Source: Escherichia phage UPEC06. Taken from it: a stretch of 64,000 bases of DNA. The position numbers were made by a program, and so were the translations under genes. Positions 4,059-47,852 of the stretch are shown piece after piece; position 1 is the stretch's first letter; each line of letters opens with the position of its first letter. Where the stretch lies: the sequence record MW250786. One strand, given 5' to 3'. Below the pieces are notes generated by a model that was not told where the DNA came from, did no database searches, and saw only the letters and a list, made by a program, of their open reading frames with translations.

Positions 4059-4113
4059 AATAACTGACGAAGGGACTCGCCTACTGATTTGTTCTTTCCT
4101 TTAATAATAGCAA

Positions 4114-4139
4114 AGCCACCTTCGGGTGGCTTTCTTTTT
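4114..4139 (+). terminator. intrinsic terminator
   Basis: AGCCACC-TTCG-GGTGGCT followed by TTCTTTTT. Confidence 0.6.
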
Positions 4140-6350: not shown

Positions 6351-6391
6351 ATCCGGTTATTGATAGGCCCACGCTTATCAGTGACAAATGA

Positions 6392-6405
6392 GGGGCTTCG
6401 GCCCC
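6392..6405 (+). terminator. UUCG hairpin, terminator/attenuator-like
   Basis: GGGGC-TTCG-GCCCC; weak U-tract. Confidence 0.35.
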
Positions 6406-6461
6406 TAATCAATTGGCACTTCCGGTGCTAGTCAATAATCGTCTAGAAGCAGAGGATAAAC

Positions 6462-11660: not shown

Positions 11661-11665
11661 TTACA

Positions 11666-11690
11666 GGGGGCTTCGGCCCCCTTTTTTATT
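11666..11690 (+). terminator. intrinsic terminator
   Basis: GGGGGC-TTCG-GCCCCC followed by TTTTTTATT. Confidence 0.65.
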
Positions 11691-15242: not shown

Positions 15243-16727
15243 ATGGCGTCCAATTACGGTCTAACGGGTAGTGGATTTAACCTCCCGCCGATGGAAGACT
15301 TGATTCAGGAAACGAAGAAAACTTTCAAGAATGAATTTGGTGAAGATTTCAATACCGAAAGTAACTCAGTTGCTGACAAACTCATTTCTATCTTTAACGA
15401 ACGTGAATATCAACTCTGGTTGTTGATGGGTTCTGTTTATTACGCACAGACAATGCAAGGTGCAGAAGGTATTTACCTTGACGACCTTTTATCTAAGCGT
15501 GGTATTTATCGTAACGGGAAGACTCGAAGCACAGGTCAGGTTCAGTTGACCATTGATTCCACTATCCCTTACAACATGATTTACTCTGCCTCTGCATACA
15601 CCATCGACAACGATTATCGTCTATCTAACGATGTTCAGGTTGCAGGAAACATTTTTGCTCAGGTCATCCGTGGTTCGGATCTTTCTGTCGGAAGTTACCG
15701 ATTACAGATCCAGAACATCAATGATCAATCGATCAAGACCATGACATATCAATTGACAGCCACCACTGGTGCGCCTGTTATCGCATTCTTCTCTGCAATT
15801 AAAGATTTCATTGTGGAGAACACTATCCTGTCCAACCGTGATAAAATCATTATTGATTCCGTAGCCAACTCTATCCACATTGGGTATGATAGTAACAAGA
15901 ACCTTATCGGCTTGTCAAGCAGAATCGATTTCCGTACTCAACCATTGGCAGGTACTAGAACTATCACAATGGATGTTAGAGCTACGGAGCCTGGTTTAAC
16001 ATCTCGTGATGCTTTCAGTGTTCGTGGAATAAGTCCGGTTCCGGCGGGTTTCCTTGACTTGACGAACCTGATTGCATTCACCCCAGGGTCAGACGTAGAA
16101 TCAGATAATGAATACCGTCTCCGTGCAATTGATGCAGTTAACACAGGAAAGGCCACTCGTGCAGCGATCCTTTCTGCACTGCTGAACAAAGTTGAGGGTA
16201 TAGAAAAGGTAAGGATCTTTGCAAACAATACCGACAAGACTAACTCTGTTGGTGTACCTCCTTACTCCTTCATGCCTGTTGTTTACGGTGGTAACACTGC
16301 TGAAATCAGTCAGGTACTTTACGACACTATCGCGGGTTCCAACAATACGTCAGGGAGTACTTTCTACAATATCACCACTGAAGATGACCAAGTAGAAACA
16401 ATCTGGCACACGAAGGCCCAAGCTCGTAACCTGAGTATGAGAATCAGCTATCGTGGAAGACCTCTTTCTGTTGTCGAAGAAACAACTATCTCAAATAGCT
16501 TGATTACTGCGATAAATGGGACTATTATAGCCGGAACTCTGTACAACGTTCAGTTGGTAGGTACAGTTATCAGTTCAACGGCATCATCTCGTTTCACTCA
16601 AGTTTTTGTTGAGATTAAGAACGTAGAAGAACCTGAGTCTTCCTATGTTGGAACAGATGTATCTGCCGATGTTACTGAAGTATTCGCCCTGTCCGCAGAG
16701 AATATTGAATTCCGTCAGATAGTTTAA
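15243..16727 (+). CDS. putative baseplate J-like protein
   Basis: 494 aa ORF, AGGAGG RBS, position after gpW-like gene. Confidence 0.4.
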   Translation: MASNYGLTGSGFNLPPMEDLIQETKKTFKNEFGEDFNTESNSVADKLISIFNEREYQLWLLMGSVYYAQTMQGAEGIYLDDLLSKRGIYRNGKTRSTGQVQLTIDSTIPYNMIYSASAYTIDNDYRLSNDVQVAGNIFAQVIRGSDLSVGSYRLQIQNINDQSIKTMTYQLTATTGAPVIAFFSAIKDFIVENTILSNRDKIIIDSVANSIHIGYDSNKNLIGLSSRIDFRTQPLAGTRTITMDVRATEPGLTSRDAFSVRGISPVPAGFLDLTNLIAFTPGSDVESDNEYRLRAIDAVNTGKATRAAILSALLNKVEGIEKVRIFANNTDKTNSVGVPPYSFMPVVYGGNTAEISQVLYDTIAGSNNTSGSTFYNITTEDDQVETIWHTKAQARNLSMRISYRGRPLSVVEETTISNSLITAINGTIIAGTLYNVQLVGTVISSTASSRFTQVFVEIKNVEEPESSYVGTDVSADVTEVFALSAENIEFRQIV

Positions 16728-17390: not shown

Positions 17391-19025
17391 ATGGCTAGAC
17401 CAACAACACCGATTGTTGTCTTTGCGGCACAAGATGTTAACCTTCCTGGCACTGGAAGACCTAACAAATCAAAACCGATTGATGACCTTTTAGCGAAGGG
17501 CTATGACAAAGGACAAAAACCAGCGGCAGAGGAATTCAACTATATTCTTCACCAATCTGGTGCTTGGCTTAACTGGATCGTAGAAGAGAAGTTCCCTGAA
17601 GTTGAAGAAGAATATAAGCGACTGATTCAGGAACTCGAAACACGAGTAAACAATCAACTGGAAGTTATTCGTGAAGATGTTGCAAACGTAAGACAATCAG
17701 TTGCAACCTTGAGAACTTATGTAGAGCAAACTGTTGCAGACATTCGTCGTGAGATCACTGCGGTTGATCAGCGTGTTACTCGTTTGTCTCAAGACTTGGA
17801 TAATGCTGTTTCCAGATTAAACGCCCGTATTGATGAGCTTGAACCTCGTTTAGTTCCGATCGGTGCAATTCTTACTTGGGCAGGCCAAACACCTCCGGCG
17901 GGATTCTTGGAATGTAATGGACAGGTATACAGTACATCTCAAAACCCGAAACTTTATCAAGTCCTTGGTAGGAACGTAGTACCTGATTATCGTGGATTGT
18001 TCCTTCGTGGCTGGGCGCACGGATCTGGCGCTTACGATCCTGACTCTGGTCGTGCTTTGGGTTCTATTCAAGGTGATGCGATTCGAAACATTACTGGCGC
18101 GATGGGTTACGAAAGTATTCGTACTGACCACGGATATCGTGAGAGTGGTGCACTTTATACGCAATATAACTCAAACTCAGGTCCTGATCACGATCGTAAA
18201 AACCCAGCGGGTGATGTTCGATTTGATGCAAGCCGTGTTGTTCCGACTGCACCAGAAAACAGACCTAAGAACGTCGCAGTGATGTATATTATCAAGACTG
18301 ATCAGGCACAAGGTACGGGAAGTCTGTCACCAACTGCACTTGTTACTACGCCGGACACTATTACAAACCGCGTAGGGTTTACTCAAGGGATTTCTGCTCA
18401 GGTTCTCCCTGCAAACTTGGCAAGTCAATACCCTGTGACGTGGACTTCTCAGAACGGTAATGTTGCAACAGTGGATAGTGCAGGTAACGTAAGATTAACT
18501 GGTCCAGGTGAAACTAACATTATCGCCTCTATCTCTACTGGTATCTCTGCCCAAGTTAAAATAGTTTCATATACACCACTGACAGCAATCAGTATCGGTA
18601 GCATACCTAGTGTAGAGGTTAATGATTCCGAGGTTATTCCTGTTAATAGAACACCTGCTAACTCTAACGAGCCTCTCGTGTATTCTACCAGTAATGCTAA
18701 CGTCGCTGTTGTAACTCAAAGCGGTTACGTATCTGGTGTTTCTCCAGGTACAGCGGTAATAACAGTTCGTGGGTCTATCACAGGCATCCAAGCCACAAGA
18801 CAGGTCACTGTAATTCCTGCAACGATTGTTCAGACCATAGAGGATGTTCGTTTAGGTCTTGAGCAACAGACGACAATGAATGGCGATGATTATACAAATC
18901 CTGTGCGTGCTCCGGCGGGTTGTGTTATTACTGGCGTTGTATCAGCAGGTCTTGGGTTAAATCAAGGTTATTATAAACCGATCCAGAAGCGTATATCTGG
19001 CGTATGGGTAACGGTGGAGGGTTAA
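17391..19025 (+). CDS. tail fibre protein with tail-collar domain and Ig-like (Big_2-type) repeats
   Basis: Motif LTWAGQTPPAGFLECNGQVYSTSQNPKLYQVLG resembles the phage tail collar domain; two Big_2-like segments (VTWTSQNGNVATVDSAGNV..., VYSTSNANVAVVTQSGYV...). Confidence 0.65.
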   Translation: MARPTTPIVVFAAQDVNLPGTGRPNKSKPIDDLLAKGYDKGQKPAAEEFNYILHQSGAWLNWIVEEKFPEVEEEYKRLIQELETRVNNQLEVIREDVANVRQSVATLRTYVEQTVADIRREITAVDQRVTRLSQDLDNAVSRLNARIDELEPRLVPIGAILTWAGQTPPAGFLECNGQVYSTSQNPKLYQVLGRNVVPDYRGLFLRGWAHGSGAYDPDSGRALGSIQGDAIRNITGAMGYESIRTDHGYRESGALYTQYNSNSGPDHDRKNPAGDVRFDASRVVPTAPENRPKNVAVMYIIKTDQAQGTGSLSPTALVTTPDTITNRVGFTQGISAQVLPANLASQYPVTWTSQNGNVATVDSAGNVRLTGPGETNIIASISTGISAQVKIVSYTPLTAISIGSIPSVEVNDSEVIPVNRTPANSNEPLVYSTSNANVAVVTQSGYVSGVSPGTAVITVRGSITGIQATRQVTVIPATIVQTIEDVRLGLEQQTTMNGDDYTNPVRAPAGCVITGVVSAGLGLNQGYYKPIQKRISGVWVTVEG

Positions 19026-19027
19026 TT

Positions 19028-19540
19028 ATGAGAATGAATAACTTCAAGCTTTATACACCGGAAGTTAAATCTTTCGGAGAAGGAGTTCAGTATTTTCAGG
19101 ATGATAAGGGTCGTGATTTCTACGACTCTCGTGCACTATTCAAAAAGAAATATGTTGTTTTCTTTGATGAGCATAATATTGTCCGTGGCTGGGCAAAGAG
19201 TGAAGAAGTTACCCGTCTTCACCCAGGTGGTTTATCTGTTGTGGATCTTAATACCCTCCCTAAAGATTTTTCTTTGCAAGGTGGTGTTTGGTCATTCAAC
19301 GGAAAACAGGTAGTTAAGGCAGACTATGATCCTGCTTTTAGCACCGCTGCAAGAAAGGCTGGCATTCTGCAAGTGATCGGTTCTGTTATCGTTCCGCTTC
19401 AGGATGCTGTTGAATTGGGAGATGCTACAGATGATGAGCTTGAGAAGTATAACGATCTTCGTAAGATGAGAGTTAAAGTCATGCGTATCCCTGATAGCAC
19501 CTCCCCTGGTGATATCGACTGGTCAGAGTTCACCTTTTAA
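19028..19540 (+). CDS. putative tail fibre assembly protein
   Basis: ~170 aa ORF immediately after fibre gene; ATG at 19028 chosen over overlapping track start at 19004. Confidence 0.4.
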   Translation: MRMNNFKLYTPEVKSFGEGVQYFQDDKGRDFYDSRALFKKKYVVFFDEHNIVRGWAKSEEVTRLHPGGLSVVDLNTLPKDFSLQGGVWSFNGKQVVKADYDPAFSTAARKAGILQVIGSVIVPLQDAVELGDATDDELEKYNDLRKMRVKVMRIPDSTSPGDIDWSEFTF

Positions 19541-19550
19541 CCTTAGATGA

Positions 19551-19568
19551 GTCGGGCTTCGGCCCGAC
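19551..19568 (+). other. stable UUCG hairpin without U-tract
   Basis: GTCGGGC-TTCG-GCCCGAC, lies in the 5' end of the track ORF 19547..19912. Confidence 0.4.
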
Positions 19569-19579
19569 TATGGAGACTT

Positions 19580-19912
19580 ATGATTGTTGATATAATGGCA
19601 GTTCTTAAAGCACTTTGGGGTCTTTTAACATTTATTTTGCTGGGTGCACTAAAGATCTTTTACACCGACTTTAAAAAATTAGAGTCACGTCAAAGCGAGC
19701 TTGAAAAAGATGTTCTTCGTTTGAAGGAATCTGCGGTTACTAAGGATAGTATCGATGCCATTCTTGACCGTAAGATAAAACATATCACTGATACGATCCA
19801 GGATATTAGGACCGATATCACAGATATGCGAAAGGAAGCAAAAGAAGAAAACCACGCTCTACAGAAGGATATTCGAGAATTACTAAACAAAATTATTGAG
19901 AACCGCAAATGA
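19580..19912 (+). CDS. small membrane/coiled-coil protein
   Basis: Hydrophobic N-terminal segment then charged helical region; start uncertain (19547, 19580 or 19595). Confidence 0.4.
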   Translation: MIVDIMAVLKALWGLLTFILLGALKIFYTDFKKLESRQSELEKDVLRLKESAVTKDSIDAILDRKIKHITDTIQDIRTDITDMRKEAKEENHALQKDIRELLNKIIENRK

Positions 19913-20367
19913 TTACAGCCATAATATATGGCATTTGTTTCGTAATCCTTGCTACTCGAAAAGAGAGTGGAACAAAGATAATGGCTGGGCTTTGCCTAGC
20001 CTATCTCGTATTGGAGAACCTGATCCTTTGGTTCTTCTCTACGCAACAATATTTCGACATCACTCTTTATTTTAATGTTCTCTGGACATTGGATTCGATA
20101 CTGCTTTTCACTATGGGTTGTACAGTGAAAGGATTACGACAAAAACTTATCGTATGCCTAAGTATTCCGTTCATGCTTATTCAAGTGTTTGCAATCCAAT
20201 ATCCAGAATTGTTCCCCTTATGGGTTTACGAATTCGCTCTTAGAGACGCTCACAAATATTTCATAGAAACCTTTGTGTTCGTTTATTCTTGGAAGGATAA
20301 TACCGTACCGGAATGGATAAGGACAGCAGTGGTGATATTTCTGGTGCTCATTGCCCATATGGTATGA
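19909..20367 (+). CDS. multi-pass membrane protein
   Basis: Several hydrophobic segments; ATGA overlap with upstream ORF. Confidence 0.45.
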   Translation: MITAIIYGICFVILATRKESGTKIMAGLCLAYLVLENLILWFFSTQQYFDITLYFNVLWTLDSILLFTMGCTVKGLRQKLIVCLSIPFMLIQVFAIQYPELFPLWVYEFALRDAHKYFIETFVFVYSWKDNTVPEWIRTAVVIFLVLIAHMV

Positions 20368-20389
20368 ACATTGATAATGAAGGTGATCT

Positions 20390-20650
20390 ATGTTAAAATT
20401 TCTCAAAGACCTCGTTACCTCTGCGGTGGAACCAGATAAAGCTTCCCATACAAAGTTTTGGTCTAACGTAGGTATGGCTGCTATGACTGCCGTCTTTCTA
20501 TGGTATGGATTCAACAATACATTGCCTGAATGGTATGTGTGGCTTTATGCTCCTACGGTAGTGGCTCCACACCTTTTGAGTGATCTCATTAACCTCCGCT
20601 GGGGATTATCTTTGAAAAAAGATAAAGGCCCTTCTGACGAAAACAAGTAA
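20390..20650 (+). CDS. small membrane protein
   Basis: Hydrophobic central segment (MAAMTAVFLWYGF). Confidence 0.4.
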   Translation: MLKFLKDLVTSAVEPDKASHTKFWSNVGMAAMTAVFLWYGFNNTLPEWYVWLYAPTVVAPHLLSDLINLRWGLSLKKDKGPSDENK

Positions 20651-20662
20651 GAGGAGAAAACT

Positions 20663-23600
20663 GTGTCGTCTAATACTGATATATTGGCACTGGTAAGTAC
20701 CGAAGCAGATCTTGCTGTTGACCAGATCATTGAAGACTCTCGAAGACTTCATTTGATCGTCAACGGAACTGCAACAGAACAAGCTGTTACAGAAGATGGT
20801 AGCTTAATCCCTAGTGTACGTAAAGCGATAATTGATAACTTTTATTTTAAAACTCCACCGTTACCGTGGAGAAATGGAAGTTCAGTTATTGAATTCAATC
20901 AGTTATATGCATTTACCGATGTAAATGGCAACGTAACTTGGTGGTATGCCCCAGGTGCAACTACCAGCACTCCTGTCGTTATGCGAGACAGTCCAATCAA
21001 CGACGGTAAGTTCAGACCTTTCTTCGATAAAGGTAACATTCAAGAAACTTACGCCCCTATCCTTTCCCCTGTTTTTCGTGGAAACCCTACTGTACCTCTT
21101 GCTGCTGAAGGTGATAACTCATTTACTATCGCGAACACAGCTTGGGTTAGTCGAGAAATAGAAAAAGTACGTGGTGAGGTTCTTGAAGAGTCCAGAGGTG
21201 AATTCCAAAACATTATCGTTGCAGATGATGCGAGTCTGAAAGATCTCTATGTAAGTGGAGAAACCATCTTCACTGGCGACAGGATCGCTGCTCTTGATGC
21301 CGAGTTATCTTTAAAAAGATTACGAATGACAGGGACAGACGCAGAAATCGCATTTGAACAAAATGGCGTTCCACCCCAGGCAGGGTTAACAAAAAGAACA
21401 AATATCAAGCCTTTCCAAGTCACCACTGGTGTTGTTGATACCGATAATATAACTGCGAGAGAGATCAAGGTTGGAAATACCTCTGTTTCCACGAATTCTC
21501 TTGATGTTGATGGATTCATGCAAGGTGACTATCTTCACTTAGAGGGTAATGCCAATAACGCAGAAGACCGCCCACAACTGATCGTTGACGGTATTGCGGA
21601 AATAAATACTCTTCGTGTGACGAACACCATTGAAGGATTGAAGGCTGACGTTGAAGGTCTGGATATTAATCCTAACAGCATTGTGGTTGAAAGAACTGCG
21701 GAGATTAAGGGAAATACAACCCTTGGTGCAGATCTTGCCGTTACTGGCAATACGGTATTGAAAAATGTAAGAATCGAAGGTACTCTCACGGGTGCTGGAA
21801 TCGGTGTTGACGGGAAAGACATTTCCCCTCGTAATGTGAGTGCAACATCCGTTACTGTGGCAGAGAGCTTAAACATTACTGGACCTACTACGGCTTCCGG
21901 CGACGTTACGGTAAACAACCTGACGGTTAATGGAACACTCAGGGCCGATATCGACTTTGGAACTGCTGCTGTTGAATTCCAAGATCTGACTGTGACTAAC
22001 AAGGCAACGATCAAGGATCTTGAAATCACCGGAAACCTGACGGGAGTTACAGTCTCTGTTGATGGTGAAGCAATCTCCCCTTCTTCGGTGACAACCACAG
22101 GAAACATCGATGTTGGTAACAACATGCGTGTTCGTGGTGATATTACTCTGGACGGTGAGTTAAGTATCCCAAGCTTAGATACTGGGGACATAACGGCTGC
22201 TGCAATTGATGGTGCGAGCCTCTCAGTTAGTGGCGACATTACCGCAGGAACAACTTCGACCACAACGGTTAACAATCTTGTAGTCACAGGAACCACTACA
22301 GGAATCACTGTAACGGGCAATGTTGACGGACAAGACATTCTCCCATCCTCTGTAGAAACAACGTCTGTAGTGGCCTCTGAGAGAGTTACAACGGCAAACC
22401 TGACATCTACAGGTGACACTCAGGTAAATAACCTGACAATTACTGGAACTGTAACAGGATTCGATGTAGATCTTACCGGAAAGGACATTCAGGTTAATAC
22501 CTTGACGGTTACTCGCGGGTCAACTTTTGACGAGGTTACTGCTAATAACATAACCAACAATCAAAAGATTACCACAGTAGACCTTCAGGTTACTGGAAAC
22601 CTGACGAATGCAGACGGTGAACAATTCTTTGCAAACGTCACTGGTCAAGATATACTTCCTAATAGTGTGCAGTCTGCAACGTCTGTGAGAACTAAAACGC
22701 TACGTGTCGAAGAGACTAGCCTATTGGAAGGTGCTGTTACCTTAAATGATGGTTTGACTATCACTGGTGGTAATATCACATCTGTTCAAGGTCAAGCAAG
22801 CTTCAATGACGTACAGGTATTTGGATCTCTTCTGGACGCGAATGGTAATGCCTTAGGGACAGCGGAAAGCATAAACGGTAAAGATATCTCTCCTCGTAGC
22901 GTTACTGCTCAAGTTGAGATTCAGACTACTGCAATTGTTGCTACAGGTCAAGCTGAAGTTGGTTCTTTGATTTCAACTGGACAAGTAATGGCAGGAAGCT
23001 TAGAGGTTTCAGGGATAGGTAATATTGGTCAGGTTATTACCGACGACGTTCGTGCTGGAAAGGTAACTTCTGGTAACACCGTTATTACTCGTACTGTTGG
23101 ATCTAGCGATCCTGCTCTTGAAGTTCGTGGACCAGGTGAGATTCAGGGTGACCTTAATGTAACCGGAACTGTAACTGGTAACATTGACCTTAGCTCTCAA
23201 GACGTTAACGTTGCTTCAATGACCTCAACGGGAACAGTAAATGCCCTTTCCATTGAGTCTCGTACATCGGTAACTGGATTGTCTGGTACATTCGGTGAAG
23301 ATTATGAAGGTGCACCTACCTATGGTATAACTTCTCTTTCCGGCGCAAACATCAACAAGAACCTTCGAGTTGGTGGAAACCTGACTGTTGTTGGTAACAT
23401 CTCTGGCAATATCGACTTATCTGGAAAGGCGATCGAGCCTGCATCTTTGTCTACCACGACAGCTACGTTAACGACGGCGAACATAACAGACCTGACTGTA
23501 ACTGGTCAGTTTAATATCCCGACTGTACCGTTAAATGTTCAATCCCTTAGTTCTGAAAACGCTATTTCCGCAAGCAAGTTCAGCACCACACCAAAAGAAG

Positions 23601-23896
23601 TAAGCACCACCTCTTCTTCTTACATCCCAGACGGCTCAACGAGCATATATAACGTAAACGTTATAAATGATGTTGAAGTGAAAGCGCCGATTGGCCTGTT
23701 GAGTTCAGGAAAAGGTGAGTCGGTATTCCTCTTCTTTGAACAGGATGGTACTGGTGGACATGCGGTAACATTCGGATCGGAGTTTGTTGTGCATGGTACT
23801 GAAACCATCAAAACAGATGCAAACACTGTATCGGTAGTTAACATGGTTTATCGTGGCAAAGGCCCATTGATTGACGTATTCATCACTCGTCGCTAA
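20663..23896 (+). CDS. large tail fibre/tailspike-like protein with internal periodic repeats
   Basis: 1077 aa, Thr/Gly/Asn/Val-rich; motif G(K/Q)DI(S/L)PxSV recurs at least 6 times; GTG start with GAGGAG. Confidence 0.6.
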   Translation: MSSNTDILALVSTEADLAVDQIIEDSRRLHLIVNGTATEQAVTEDGSLIPSVRKAIIDNFYFKTPPLPWRNGSSVIEFNQLYAFTDVNGNVTWWYAPGATTSTPVVMRDSPINDGKFRPFFDKGNIQETYAPILSPVFRGNPTVPLAAEGDNSFTIANTAWVSREIEKVRGEVLEESRGEFQNIIVADDASLKDLYVSGETIFTGDRIAALDAELSLKRLRMTGTDAEIAFEQNGVPPQAGLTKRTNIKPFQVTTGVVDTDNITAREIKVGNTSVSTNSLDVDGFMQGDYLHLEGNANNAEDRPQLIVDGIAEINTLRVTNTIEGLKADVEGLDINPNSIVVERTAEIKGNTTLGADLAVTGNTVLKNVRIEGTLTGAGIGVDGKDISPRNVSATSVTVAESLNITGPTTASGDVTVNNLTVNGTLRADIDFGTAAVEFQDLTVTNKATIKDLEITGNLTGVTVSVDGEAISPSSVTTTGNIDVGNNMRVRGDITLDGELSIPSLDTGDITAAAIDGASLSVSGDITAGTTSTTTVNNLVVTGTTTGITVTGNVDGQDILPSSVETTSVVASERVTTANLTSTGDTQVNNLTITGTVTGFDVDLTGKDIQVNTLTVTRGSTFDEVTANNITNNQKITTVDLQVTGNLTNADGEQFFANVTGQDILPNSVQSATSVRTKTLRVEETSLLEGAVTLNDGLTITGGNITSVQGQASFNDVQVFGSLLDANGNALGTAESINGKDISPRSVTAQVEIQTTAIVATGQAEVGSLISTGQVMAGSLEVSGIGNIGQVITDDVRAGKVTSGNTVITRTVGSSDPALEVRGPGEIQGDLNVTGTVTGNIDLSSQDVNVASMTSTGTVNALSIESRTSVTGLSGTFGEDYEGAPTYGITSLSGANINKNLRVGGNLTVVGNISGNIDLSGKAIEPASLSTTTATLTTANITDLTVTGQFNIPTVPLNVQSLSSENAISASKFSTTPKEVSTTSSSYIPDGSTSIYNVNVINDVEVKAPIGLLSSGKGESVFLFFEQDGTGGHAVTFGSEFVVHGTETIKTDANTVSVVNMVYRGKGPLIDVFITRR

Positions 23897-23899
23897 TAG

Positions 23900-23924
23900 A
23901 GGCCCTTCGGGGCCTTTTCTTTTT
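23900..23924 (+). terminator. intrinsic terminator
   Basis: AGGCCC-TTCG-GGGCCT followed by TTTCTTTTT. Confidence 0.6.
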
Positions 23925-25173: not shown

Positions 25174-25206
25174 AAAAGGCGCTCAAATGAGCGCCTTTAT
25201 TTTTAT
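25174..25206. terminator. bidirectional terminator between convergent modules
   Basis: GGCGCTC-AAAT-GAGCGCC flanked by A-tract and T-tract, between + gene ending 25171 and - gene ending 25220. Confidence 0.6.
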
Positions 25207-26913: not shown

Positions 26914-27501
26914 TCAAGGACGTTTTGGTGGACTAACGACACCTTTTTTAGATAAAGGTAATTCGTCTGCATCTTTTCCACGAAGAGATTCTAGCCACTC
27001 ATCTAAAGACAGGGGTACTTTACCATCACCTTTGGACCACACAGACAAGCAATACAGATCGTATGCAGATGGACCTCGATCACCTTTGTCACCATTCGGC
27101 CCTTTTAAGCTCTCCAACCAATCCTTTTCGTTCAGTGGGATAGCACCTGGATCTTCTTGATGAAGAACTCTTAGGTATGTTTCATAAGCAGACTCTCCAC
27201 GAGGACCCATTTGACCCTTCTCACCTTGTGGCCCTTTTGCATAATCTGCGTACTTAGATTCCAGATATGCAGACTTCACACCTTCAGGGGCAACGGAAAC
27301 CTTATACAATGACCAAGCTAACAGAGCTATCCAACAAGCAAACAGTGCAAGCGGATAAGGGATCATTGAAGTAAAGAATGACAGAGCTAAAATTACAACC
27401 TTGTTCTTGTGATTACGACGGAAAGCGATGATCACAGGGGCTAACCAGATAGCAAAGATAACCCACGCAGATAAGATAAACAACCAACTAATGTATTCCA
27501 T
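26914..27501 (-). CDS. membrane protein with two collagen-like/SAY repeats
   Basis: N-terminal hydrophobic segments; duplicated unit KGPxGxKGxxGPxxxSAY...PLxxxxWLESLxG. Confidence 0.45.
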   Translation of the reverse strand: MEYISWLFILSAWVIFAIWLAPVIIAFRRNHKNKVVILALSFFTSMIPYPLALFACWIALLAWSLYKVSVAPEGVKSAYLESKYADYAKGPQGEKGQMGPRGESAYETYLRVLHQEDPGAIPLNEKDWLESLKGPNGDKGDRGPSAYDLYCLSVWSKGDGKVPLSLDEWLESLRGKDADELPLSKKGVVSPPKRP

Positions 27502-33192: not shown

Positions 33193-33218
33193 AAAACCAC
33201 CCCGAAGGGTGGTTTAAA
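33193..33218 (-). terminator. intrinsic terminator downstream of DNA polymerase gene
   Basis: On - strand: AACCACCC-TTCG-GGGTGGTT followed by TTCTTTT. Confidence 0.55.
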
Positions 33219-41383: not shown

Positions 41384-41448
41384 TTGTTTCTCCTTTCTGT
41401 TTGGTATGGGAGAAGTATAGGGGAGTTTAGGAGGGGTGTCAATAGAAA

Positions 41449-41467
41449 AACCGCCCGAAGGCGGTTT
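41449..41467 (-). terminator. intrinsic terminator downstream of helicase exon
   Basis: On - strand: AACCGCC-TTCG-GGCGGTT followed by TTTTCTATT. Confidence 0.5.
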
Positions 41468-46969: not shown

Positions 46970-47159
46970 TATTTAGTTCCTCATATTCATATGGGTAGAG
47001 TAGATATCCTTTGTTGTCTTTTAGTGCTACAGCTATAACACTCTCAAGGTAAAAATCATCGTCATAGTGCATTTCTTCAATTACAAGAATATCACCTTTC
47101 TTTGGATGATCATCGCGATCACTGAAATCATTTAGTAGTTTTATTTTTACGTTTTTCAT
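46962..47159 (-). CDS. hypothetical small protein
   Basis: ORF in operon. Confidence 0.35.
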   Translation of the reverse strand: MKNVKIKLLNDFSDRDDHPKKGDILVIEEMHYDDDFYLESVIAVALKDNKGYLLYPYEYEELNND

Positions 47160-47340
47160 ATAACATCTCCGCTGCTACAAGGGATAAGATCATTGCCATA
47201 TACATTACAATGGAAGTCACACTGATCTGAATGAAAACCTCATCGGTTACATGATCAAAGTAAGCATTCTTTACATATCTTACGCCCACGAGCCAAAATA
47301 CCATTACTACAGCAAATGTCAGTATCATACGTTTTATCAT
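47128..47340 (-). CDS. small two-TM membrane protein (holin-like candidate)
   Basis: Two hydrophobic segments, 70 aa, directly after hydrolase gene. Confidence 0.4.
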   Translation of the reverse strand: MIKRMILTFAVVMVFWLVGVRYVKNAYFDHVTDEVFIQISVTSIVMYMAMILSLVAAEMLYEKRKNKTTK

Positions 47341-47852
47341 TTCTTTTTCTCCTCTTTATCTTTATAAAAGATGTGATTTTCTATGGTAACTGTTCTTTTC
47401 AGAAGTTTACGCCACACAGGCTTAACCTTCTTAGTGTGATAATACAAAGATCCATGCGTTGGGTCAAACCTTTTATACAAAACCTCATTATTTTTTATCT
47501 TATGTACAAACTTAGAGATGCTGAGCGCACCCTCCCAGGAGTCTTTATCTGTTATGCTATAAGAGGATTTAGTTAATGTCCATGAAAACTGAGAGGCTTG
47601 ATACACAACTCCTTTCATTGTTCTCGGGAATTTATCATTTTTCATCCGATTCATTGTAACGAAGGCAACAGCCATTTGACCATTTATCGTCTCGCCTCGG
47701 GACTCCATATAGACATTACAGGCTAAGGCATTTACAGAATTATCCTTTTTCGTACATTTATGAATAACCTTCTGTGCTCTCTCTTTGGCATAAGTGACGC
47801 CTGGTGCCAGAGACAGAGTACAAATCAAACCACATAAAACTAATTTTTTCAT
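47337..47852 (-). CDS. secreted SleB-like cell-wall hydrolase
   Basis: Signal peptide; NVYMESRGE...GQMAVAFVTMNR resembles the SleB/Hydrolase_2 family signature. Confidence 0.6.
   Translation of the reverse strand: MKKLVLCGLICTLSLAPGVTYAKERAQKVIHKCTKKDNSVNALACNVYMESRGETINGQMAVAFVTMNRMKNDKFPRTMKGVVYQASQFSWTLTKSSYSITDKDSWEGALSISKFVHKIKNNEVLYKRFDPTHGSLYYHTKKVKPVWRKLLKRTVTIENHIFYKDKEEKKK

Follow-up and report, generated by a model that had tools for sequence, protein, structure and literature searches.

Published analyses describe no classic lysis cassette in the subfamily Vequintavirinae. An Rz/Rz1 spanin pair is located beside the terminase gene in this subfamily (PMC7344957), and gp89 serves as the lysin of phage rV5, for which no holin homologue was found (rV5 paper). 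No holin could be found in phage KPP-1 (KPP-1 paper), and for the genus Septuagintavirus an M15C endopeptidase and a SleB-like hydrolase have been reported with no mention of a holin (PMC11370258). Here we describe a 64,000-nucleotide stretch of DNA from Escherichia phage UPEC06 (sequence record MW250786), referred to below as the window, in which three consecutive plus-strand genes for membrane proteins are embedded in the presumably late tail-fibre operon. These genes are designated M1 (19580-19912, 110 amino acids), M2 (19909-20367, 152 amino acids) and M3 (20390-20650, 86 amino acids). We lean, cautiously, towards the view that the trio forms a non-virion inner-membrane module of this operon and that its core, M3, is the holin of the phage. 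M3 is the best candidate for a Vequintavirinae holin, because members of its family are encoded after endolysin genes and before spanin genes in Mu-like phages and prophages.

In phage T4, the holin gene t follows tail-fibre genes 37 and 38, and the lysis genes are scattered. M3 resembles t in being a holin candidate within a late block of tail-fibre and tail-fibre assembly protein (TAP) genes, with endolysin and spanins encoded elsewhere. The T4 protein differs in having one transmembrane domain, a large periplasmic domain and an unrelated sequence, and the window differs from T4 in that three membrane genes are present, located between two fibre genes. The same T4 analogy has been drawn for rV5 (rV5 paper). 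Phage Mu is the second relevant system: it reportedly has no holin and relies on a signal-arrest-release (SAR) endolysin together with the releasin gp25 (PMC9239132). The latter, a DUF2730 protein of 99 amino acids, is oriented N-out/C-in, with four residues in the periplasm, two basic residues where the helix leaves the membrane and a cytoplasmic domain of 73 residues; DUF2730 has been reported only in transposable phages, no more than five genes from the endolysin gene (PMC9239132).

M3 homologues in lysis cassettes

M3 matches the family phrog_1322 (E 2.1e-29), with residues 1-81 aligned to positions 3-82 of the 87-position profile. The gene was detected by tblastn in 373 phage records, and a search of the M3 profile against 1.84 billion representative proteins recovered 115 representative clusters at E≤1e-3. 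Every one of the 71 family members tested matches phrog_1322.

The genetic neighbourhood of M3-like genes was examined at 13 loci, all outside the Vequintavirinae-type fibre locus. In 8 of the 13 a peptidoglycan hydrolase gene lies immediately upstream of the M3-like gene and often overlaps it. The hydrolase is an M15 peptidase in Pseudomonas phage Bise, an annotated endolysin in Ralstonia phage RS138, VanY/M15_4 in the metagenomic contigs L008/L009, M15_4 in the metagenomic contig L014, VanY (an M15 peptidase) in a Laribacter prophage (L017), Phage_lysozyme in L016 (E 4.7e-38), a C-terminal fragment of PG_binding_3 in L015 (E 3.8e-14) and a weakly matching Amidase_2 in L021. A Hydrolase_2 gene is placed two genes upstream in L020. 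At least five unrelated hydrolase types stand beside M3-like genes; the pairing of a single family of small membrane proteins with so many kinds of hydrolase is the mix-and-match pattern typical of holins.

On the other side of the M3-like gene, an i-spanin-type gene follows directly in eight loci (Bise, RS138, L008/L009, L014, L007, L020, L022 and L023). Such genes were recognized by an N-terminal helix and a coiled coil in the product, in some cases with a lipoprotein gene after them; the only annotated spanin among them is ORF28 of RS138, all others being judged from sequence. An i-spanin-type gene is located one gene further downstream in L017, and a lipoprotein gene lies downstream in L015 and L016. 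In all, a spanin gene comes after the M3-like gene in about ten of the loci. The layout of the Mu-like genomes runs from a late activator gene (Mor) through the endolysin, M3-like, spanin and DksA-like genes to the terminase gene. The five complete adjoining endolysins have no N-terminal hydrophobic segment, so that a holin would be required for their action. The sole two-helix membrane candidate for this role in Bise and RS138 is the M3-like protein.

The relationship between the Vequintavirinae M3 proteins and the members from Mu-like cassettes was assessed by profile and pairwise comparisons. The hhalign comparison of the two groups gave a probability of 99.5% (E 7.8e-23) over 78 columns. 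Protein P0140, encoded beside an M15 peptidase, shares 42% identity over its full length with the M3 of a Klebsiella phage (E 1e-14), while P0148 is 44-45% identical to the M3 proteins of fibre-locus phages and 52% identical to the Bise protein. By these alignments, homology between fibre-locus M3 and the cassette proteins is solid. Lysis proteins of the holin/antiholin type were among the roles that the original prediction had offered for the three genes, and this option gains indirect support for M3 only, from its homology to proteins in the holin position of Mu-like lysis cassettes. The 5-kb lysis region of Mu, for which the absence of a holin has been reported, contains no M3-family member either. 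Mu-like phages with soluble endolysins carry an M3-like gene together with proteins of releasin-like architecture.

A subgroup of the M3 family is distinguished by an extra N-terminal transmembrane helix and a length of about 115-160 amino acids (L010 96-455, P0176, P0188, P0192, P0196 and others). One of these proteins is encoded in a T4-like regA/clamp-loader region, not in a lysis cassette.

Predicted structure and family assignment of M3

The AlphaFold2 model of M3 (predicted local distance difference test, pLDDT, 72) comprises an N-terminal amphipathic helix and two membrane helices, at residues 20-42 and 47-71, separated by a four-residue turn. The initial description of M3 as a small transmembrane protein holds as regards the membrane, and the protein is modelled with two helices arranged as a hairpin. 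The C-terminal tail is LRWGLSLKKDKGPSDENK, its final residues being KKDKGPSDENK. In all 16 homologues compared, the N-terminal tail carries 3-6 lysine or arginine residues, the loop 0-1 and the C-terminal tail 2-5; the loop is acidic and both tails are basic throughout (16/16), a charge distribution that predicts an N-in/C-in topology. Seventeen positions are invariant across genera, including S19, T21, W24 and LRWG at 69-72.

With 86 residues and two predicted membrane helices, M3 falls within the range usual for holins (about 60-150 amino acids and at least one transmembrane domain), and its charged hydrophilic C-terminal tail and predicted N-in/C-in topology correspond to those of class II. 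It is comparable to class II holins such as S21 68 of phage 21 in size, in the two-helix hairpin, in the basic cytoplasmic termini and in the charged C-terminal tail. Helix 1 is, as in these holins, of only moderate hydrophobicity, with many Gly, Ala, Thr and Met residues, and the homologues of M3, like class II holins, are encoded between endolysin and spanin genes. M3 differs from them by an N-terminal amphipathic segment of 20 residues, a strongly conserved SHTKxWxN...LRWG motif and the distance of its gene from the endolysin gene; hole formation by M3 is a prediction only.

Five of the 71 relatives tested match Pfam DUF2644 (PF10841) at E≤0.01 (best E 6e-5), and further precomputed matches exist. 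The window M3 itself gives no match to this family even at E≤10, so the relation of M3 to DUF2644 follows from profile comparison only. No sequence relation of M3 to the holin families of Pfam, NCBIfam and PHROG was detected, and nothing above noise was obtained against PDB sequences. We found no paper on DUF2644 in the literature; a paper on an ASEC2201 "holin" turned out to be unrelated. The M3 family would be a new holin family, not a new kind of system.

M1 and M2 proteins

M1 consists of an acidic N-terminus (MIVDI), a single transmembrane helix, a KK junction and a helical, coiled-coil-like domain of about 85 residues; this agrees with its earlier description as a transmembrane and coiled-coil protein. 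Of the five N-terminal residues one is acidic and none is basic. In all 12 homologues compared, the N-terminal flank of the helix has no lysine or arginine and 1-2 aspartate or glutamate residues, and the C-terminal flank has 2-4 lysine or arginine residues. This constant pattern predicts an N-out/C-in topology with the coiled coil in the cytoplasm. The KK pair is present in the 10 closest homologues and is replaced by other basic residues in rV5 and in a phi92-like phage. M1 was found in 219 phage records (tblastn). Searches of Pfam, NCBIfam and PDB sequences with M1 gave nothing above noise, and weak matches to proteins of the Rz-like spanin, XhlA and EnvC types were rejected as coiled-coil noise.

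The architecture of M1 is like that of Mu gp25: both are proteins of about 100 residues in which a very short periplasmic N-terminus is followed by a single transmembrane domain in N-out/C-in orientation, two basic residues at its cytoplasmic end and a helical domain of about 75-85 residues in the cytoplasm. In contrast to the Mu gene, M1 is placed after the TAP gene in the fibre operon of a virulent Vequintavirinae phage. We regard the resemblance of M1 to the Mu releasin as one of architecture only, not of family membership.

Proteins with an N-terminal helix and a coiled coil are also encoded in Mu-like cassettes that carry M3-like genes, as in Bise (92 amino acids), L008 (114 amino acids) and L016 (DUF2730). 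More generally, small coiled-coil membrane proteins of two kinds recur in these cassettes. Those with an N-terminal transmembrane helix, resembling the releasin and DUF2730, are encoded at L011 4734-5012 (Bise), L008 2443-2787 and L016 1584-1928, and those with a C-terminal transmembrane helix, of XhlA-like architecture, at L012 6020-6241 (RS138), L007 111-440, L021 638-847 and L014 319-669.

M2 is, as originally proposed, a multi-pass membrane protein, with five hydropathy peaks and seven helices in its AlphaFold2 model (pLDDT 78). Basic loops alternate with acidic or neutral ones along the protein. M2 was identified in 106 phage records (tblastn). A precomputed Pfam assignment to PF26221 (Phage_phiTE_239), a family named after a phiTE gene and without function, exists for all 38 M2 homologues, including one that is 96% identical. 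M2 itself gave no Pfam match, the PF26221 model apparently not being included in the Pfam copy scanned, and nothing above noise in NCBIfam or among PDB sequences. M1 and M2 are probably accessory to M3.

Genomic context and conservation of the trio

Positions 19000-21000 of the window share 96.2-96.6% identity with Escherichia phages A5-4, A7_1, A73, W70 and vB_EcoM-LTH01. The first four have been placed in the newly described genus Septuagintavirus of the Vequintavirinae (PMC11370258), and by this similarity the source of the window is a member of that genus.

The trio is situated in a presumably late, plus-strand structural block. This block contains, in order, genes encoding a baseplate wedge protein (15243-16727), a 213-amino-acid baseplate protein, a 544-amino-acid collar/Ig fibre (17391-19025; Collar, E 3.6e-13, and Big_2) and the TAP (19004-19540; Caudo_TAP, E 2.4e-11, and phrog_136, E 3.7e-40), whose TAA stop codon at 19538-19540 is directly upstream of the trio. 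The list of open reading frames (ORFs) bears out that three co-oriented ORFs lie between the TAP gene and the gene for a 1077-amino-acid long tail fibre (20663-23896, plus strand), which starts with GTG after GAGGAG and whose product is 50% identical to phiTE_241. M1, M2 and M3 are real genes, since each matches a conserved phage family: phrog_5345 (E 1.6e-35), phrog_7451 (E 1.4e-61) and phrog_1322, respectively.

M1 and M2 overlap by 4 nucleotides (ATGA, with the ATG of M2 over the M1 stop codon), and M3 is, from the sequence layout, co-oriented and tightly packed with the fibre genes. A sequence scan revealed no T-tract terminator between 19004 and 23898; the first terminator-like hairpin downstream of the trio, with a UUCG loop and a T-run, is at 23898-23917 on the plus strand. 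The 1077-amino-acid fibre gene is in the same operon as M1-M3. Sigma-70 promoter-like sites were not enriched (19 found, 23.8 expected).

The order TAP-M1-M2-M3-fibre is retained in Certrevirus (phiTE_237-241), Seunavirus (PVP-SE1 gp45-41), Salmonella phage SSBI34 and the Aeromonas Plateaulakevirus TS9. A fibre gene replaces M2 in rV5, and the gene after that of the TAP in a phi92-like phage encodes a "lipoprotein" (as annotated) whose architecture is like that of M1. Conservation of the trio extends over phages of Escherichia, Salmonella, Klebsiella, Cronobacter, Pectobacterium, Erwinia and Aeromonas, in contrast to the divergence of the adjoining fibres.

Published virion analyses are consistent with the absence of the trio from virions. 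Mass spectrometry of W70 virions detected W70_106, 107, 112, 113 and 114, of which W70_107 is the counterpart of the 1077-amino-acid fibre, and not 108-111 (PMC11370258), which correspond by position to M3, M2, M1 and the TAP. The virion proteome of CB7 included proteins 31, 36 and 37, and not 32-35 (PMC7344957). The cryo-EM paper on φTE describes short fibres, long fibres and a putative third one, and its text does not mention the trio proteins. Since mass spectrometry readily overlooks proteins that are small and hydrophobic, the absence of the trio from the virion data is supportive, not conclusive.

Two observations on public records were made alongside. The phi92-like phage vB_Ec-G1 (L006 4256-5243 and 8989-9324) appears to contain misannotations: the 111-amino-acid "lipoprotein" encoded after the TAP gene lacks a lipobox and, with its transmembrane helix and coiled coil, resembles an analogue of M1, and a 102-amino-acid ORF is labelled "tail spike protein". 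About 16-21 "Campylobacter phage" records (MG0656xx) carry rV5-type M1 and M3 at the identity level of E. coli Vequintavirus phages, pointing to hosts that were mislabelled or isolates that were contaminated.

Evidence against a holin role of M3 and alternative explanations

Several points weigh against M3 being the holin and the trio a lysis module. The members of phrog_1322 bear no functional name, all database names being "hypothetical" or "membrane protein". The helices of M3 are moderately hydrophobic, with no Kyte-Doolittle peak of ≥1.4, and predictors assign a single transmembrane domain to its PVP-SE1 counterpart, gp42. In the window M3 lies between M2 and the fibre gene, not beside an endolysin gene. 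Neither a PVP-SE1-type endolysin or spanins nor a Mu-like M15 endolysin was detected in the 64-kb window; the M15 search profile was built from distant Mu-like enzymes, and the M15C endolysin of the genus appears to be encoded outside the window. Different holins have been proposed in the literature, namely rV5 gp129 (rV5 paper) and CB7_82 (PMC7344957). As regards the accessory proteins, M2 is absent from rV5 and from phi92-like phages, and comparison of its modelled structure gave no informative fold match. M1 and four of its homologues do not match Pfam families, including DUF2730 (PF10805), at E≤1, and hhalign gave a probability of 3% when M1 was compared with a small alignment that combined Mu gp25 with three similarly built proteins from lysis cassettes, one of them a weak DUF2730 match; no sequence relation of M1 to DUF2730 was detected. 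To these points are added the conservation and position of M3 and the presence of a second holin-like gene, each of which is also the basis of an alternative explanation.

According to the first of these, which we rate as unlikely, the trio consists of membrane-anchored morphogenetic factors for the folding or assembly of fibres or the baseplate, which are discarded like the TAP and are unrelated to lysis. The strict maintenance of the TAP-M1-M2-M3-fibre order from Septuagintavirus to the Aeromonas Plateaulakevirus argues for such a role, as does the shared absence of the trio and the TAP from virions. Even in phi92-like phages an M1-like gene follows the TAP gene, and M3 is found there just upstream of the baseplate wedge gene, where a morphogenetic function is possible. 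M3 is also conserved to the same extent as baseplate proteins, which is unusual for holins: it shares 80, 60 and 50% identity with its counterparts in phiTE, PVP-SE1 and rV5, compared with 74 and 52% for the baseplate wedge protein (phiTE and PVP-SE1) and 73, 56 and 54% for the 213-amino-acid baseplate protein (phiTE, PVP-SE1 and rV5). However, the Mu-like homologues of M3 are encoded in lysis cassettes far from tail genes and beside at least five kinds of hydrolase. Moreover, no domain of a chaperone type was recognized in Pfam, PHROGs and NCBIfam scans, and rV5 dispenses with M2 yet has even more fibres.

The second alternative, to which we assign a similarly low probability, places the holin elsewhere in the window and leaves another membrane function to the trio. 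The sole hydrolase gene found in the window, about 27 kb from M3, encodes a SleB-like cell-wall hydrolase (47337-47852, minus strand; Hydrolase_2, E 2.3e-23; phrog "endolysin", E 5.6e-27). It is overlapped by 4 nucleotides by a gene for a 70-amino-acid protein (47128-47340, minus strand) with two strongly hydrophobic transmembrane helices and a basic KRKNK tail. By sequence and arrangement, the two genes are the equivalent of CB7_83/82, of which the latter was proposed to encode a class II holin in CB7 (PMC7344957). Against this, the pair belongs to a minus-strand block beside a Dda-like helicase gene, a position that reads as early or middle, not late. The N-terminus of the hydrolase, MKKLVLCGLICTLSLAPGVTYA, looks like a cleavable Sec signal, which may make a holin unneeded for its export. 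The 70-amino-acid protein is found in only 5 phage records versus 373 for M3, and published accounts limit the pair to Certrevirus and Septuagintavirus, so that a different holin would still be required in rV5 and PVP-SE1, whose endolysins are soluble. The lysozyme gene of PVP-SE1 (gp146) is surrounded by nrd and phoH genes and does not adjoin a gene for a membrane protein. Both candidates could coexist, and the pair at 47128-47852 may represent an additional system specific to the genus.

Superinfection exclusion or receptor masking by an envelope-located trio, in the manner of Imm/Sp, Cor or Llp, seems very improbable. Small membrane proteins are indeed encoded here beside fibre genes, and genes of this type often adjoin those of receptor-binding proteins; in addition, PHROGs places phrog_1322 in the category "moron, auxiliary metabolic gene and host takeover". 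Nevertheless, M1-M3 have no match to the Imm_superinfect, Imm, Sp, Cor or Llp families in Pfam, PHROGs and NCBIfam, they are encoded in an operon that appears to be late, unlike most exclusion genes, which tend to be early, and M3 homologues are present in lysis cassettes. The conservation of the trio over at least seven host genera with differing receptors (flagella, enterobacterial common antigen/lipopolysaccharide), while the neighbouring fibres diverge, disfavours any receptor-specific role. Of the functions originally envisaged for the three genes, neither superinfection exclusion nor determination of host range is therefore borne out.

A separate ORF with weak Imm-like features is located at 26914-27501 on the minus strand, just past the end of the fibre operon. 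Its product of 195 amino acids has 2-3 N-terminal hydrophobic segments and a collagen-like stretch, and weakly matches Imm_superinfect (E 6.5e-4) and phrog_1039, "immunity to superinfection" (2e-5). It is a better candidate for exclusion than the trio.

That M1 is an Rz-type i-spanin, with an inner-membrane anchor and a periplasmic coiled coil, is suggested by its architecture and by weak PHROG matches to Rz-like spanin families (E 0.002-0.02) but is extremely improbable, as these matches are at the level of coiled-coil noise, the charges predict the opposite topology in 12/12 homologues, no ORF for a lipoprotein or lipobox is embedded in or adjoins M1, and the Rz/Rz1 pair of the subfamily is already assigned beside the terminase gene (PMC7344957), as with PVP-SE1 gp78/77, in which a transmembrane helix and a lipobox can be recognized.

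Proposed role of the trio in lysis

If M3 is the holin, it would accumulate in the inner membrane late in infection and form lesions at a set time. These lesions would release or activate the separately encoded wall hydrolases, i.e. the M15C endopeptidase and the SleB-like enzyme, after which the spanins, encoded beside the terminase gene in relatives, would break the outer membrane. M1, as a membrane-tethered cytoplasmic coiled coil, and M2 might modulate the timing of M3 or the release of endolysin in the manner of an antiholin or a releasin.

Vequintavirinae and their relatives (phages of the rV5, PVP-SE1, phi92 and φTE type) are isolated in many places and serve in studies of biocontrol and therapy. 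Papers published on them in 2013-2023 either could not identify a holin or named differing ad hoc candidates. The link of M3 to Mu-like cassettes offers one conserved and testable candidate for the whole group, and it would provide a probable role for DUF2644/phrog_1322, which is present in more than 100 representative protein clusters. A more far-reaching proposition is that phrog_1322/DUF2644 constitutes a large unrecognized holin family of Vequintavirinae, phi92-like phages and many Mu-like phages with soluble endolysins, and that M1-M2-M3 act as a timer whose translation is clamped to that of the TAP gene by the conserved hairpin and the anti-Shine-Dalgarno pairing. This we consider quite doubtful; if true, large myophages would possess a lysis timer of three parts in the inner membrane, with M3 acting as the holin, M1 as a tether of the releasin or antiholin kind and M2 as the third component, and the timing of lysis would be tied to fibre production.

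Translation start of M1 and the intergenic hairpin

The first ORF of the trio had been assigned a start at 19547, which was not confirmed; the ATG at 19580 is the most likely start codon of M1. The alignment with the phrog_5345 profile begins at residue 12 of the longer ORF, relatives are annotated with the 110-amino-acid form (a 333-nucleotide gene), and a GGAG ribosome-binding site can be read off the sequence at 19572-19575 (plus strand). The ATG at 19547 is ATA in phage A5-4 (96% identical) and has no counterpart in other genera. A dual start at 19547 and 19580, as in lambda S107/S105, was rejected on the same grounds.

A C(UUCG)G hairpin with an 8-bp stem is located at 19550-19569 on the plus strand (AGTCGGGC-TTCG-GCCCGACT; as RNA, AGTCGGGC-UUCG-GCCCGACU). 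The 42-nucleotide stretch containing it folds at -17 kcal/mol (z -3.25), and the Rfam scan of the hairpin gave no match. The stable UUCG hairpin reported earlier thus exists, though not at the 5′ end of the coding sequence: because M1 starts at 19580 and the start codon at 19547 is not conserved, the structure is intergenic, within the 39-nucleotide spacer between the TAP stop codon and the M1 start. At this position Certrevirus phages (GGCCGGG.../...CCCGGCC) and Salmonella phage SSBI34 (AGUGCCGA/UCGGCACU) also carry hairpins, with other stem sequences. None of the M1-upstream hairpins of the window, Certrevirus and SSBI34 is followed by a U-tract.

The flanking CCUU at 19541-19544 can pair with the GGAG of the M1 ribosome-binding site. 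In the predicted folds, a conserved CCUU(UU) located just after the TAP stop codon pairs in the same way with the GGAG/AGGAG of this site, which suggests translational repression or coupling of M1. In the lysis scheme proposed above, the hairpin and the CCUU/GGAG pairing might limit the translation of M1 or couple it to that of the TAP; we infer such control, like the modulation of M3 by M1 and M2, only weakly.

GC-rich C(UUCG)G hairpins recur between genes of the window. They were recorded on the plus strand at 1757-1772, 4112-4133, 6391-6406, 11665-11682, 19550-19569 and 23898-23917, and on the minus strand at 33194-33215 and 41448-41467. Most of them are accompanied by T-runs and are terminator-like, those at 6391 and 19550 being exceptions. 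A hairpin formed by a perfect 10-bp palindrome, with a T-run on either strand, is located at 25175-25198 and is a bidirectional terminator at the point where the plus-strand late operon meets a minus-strand block.

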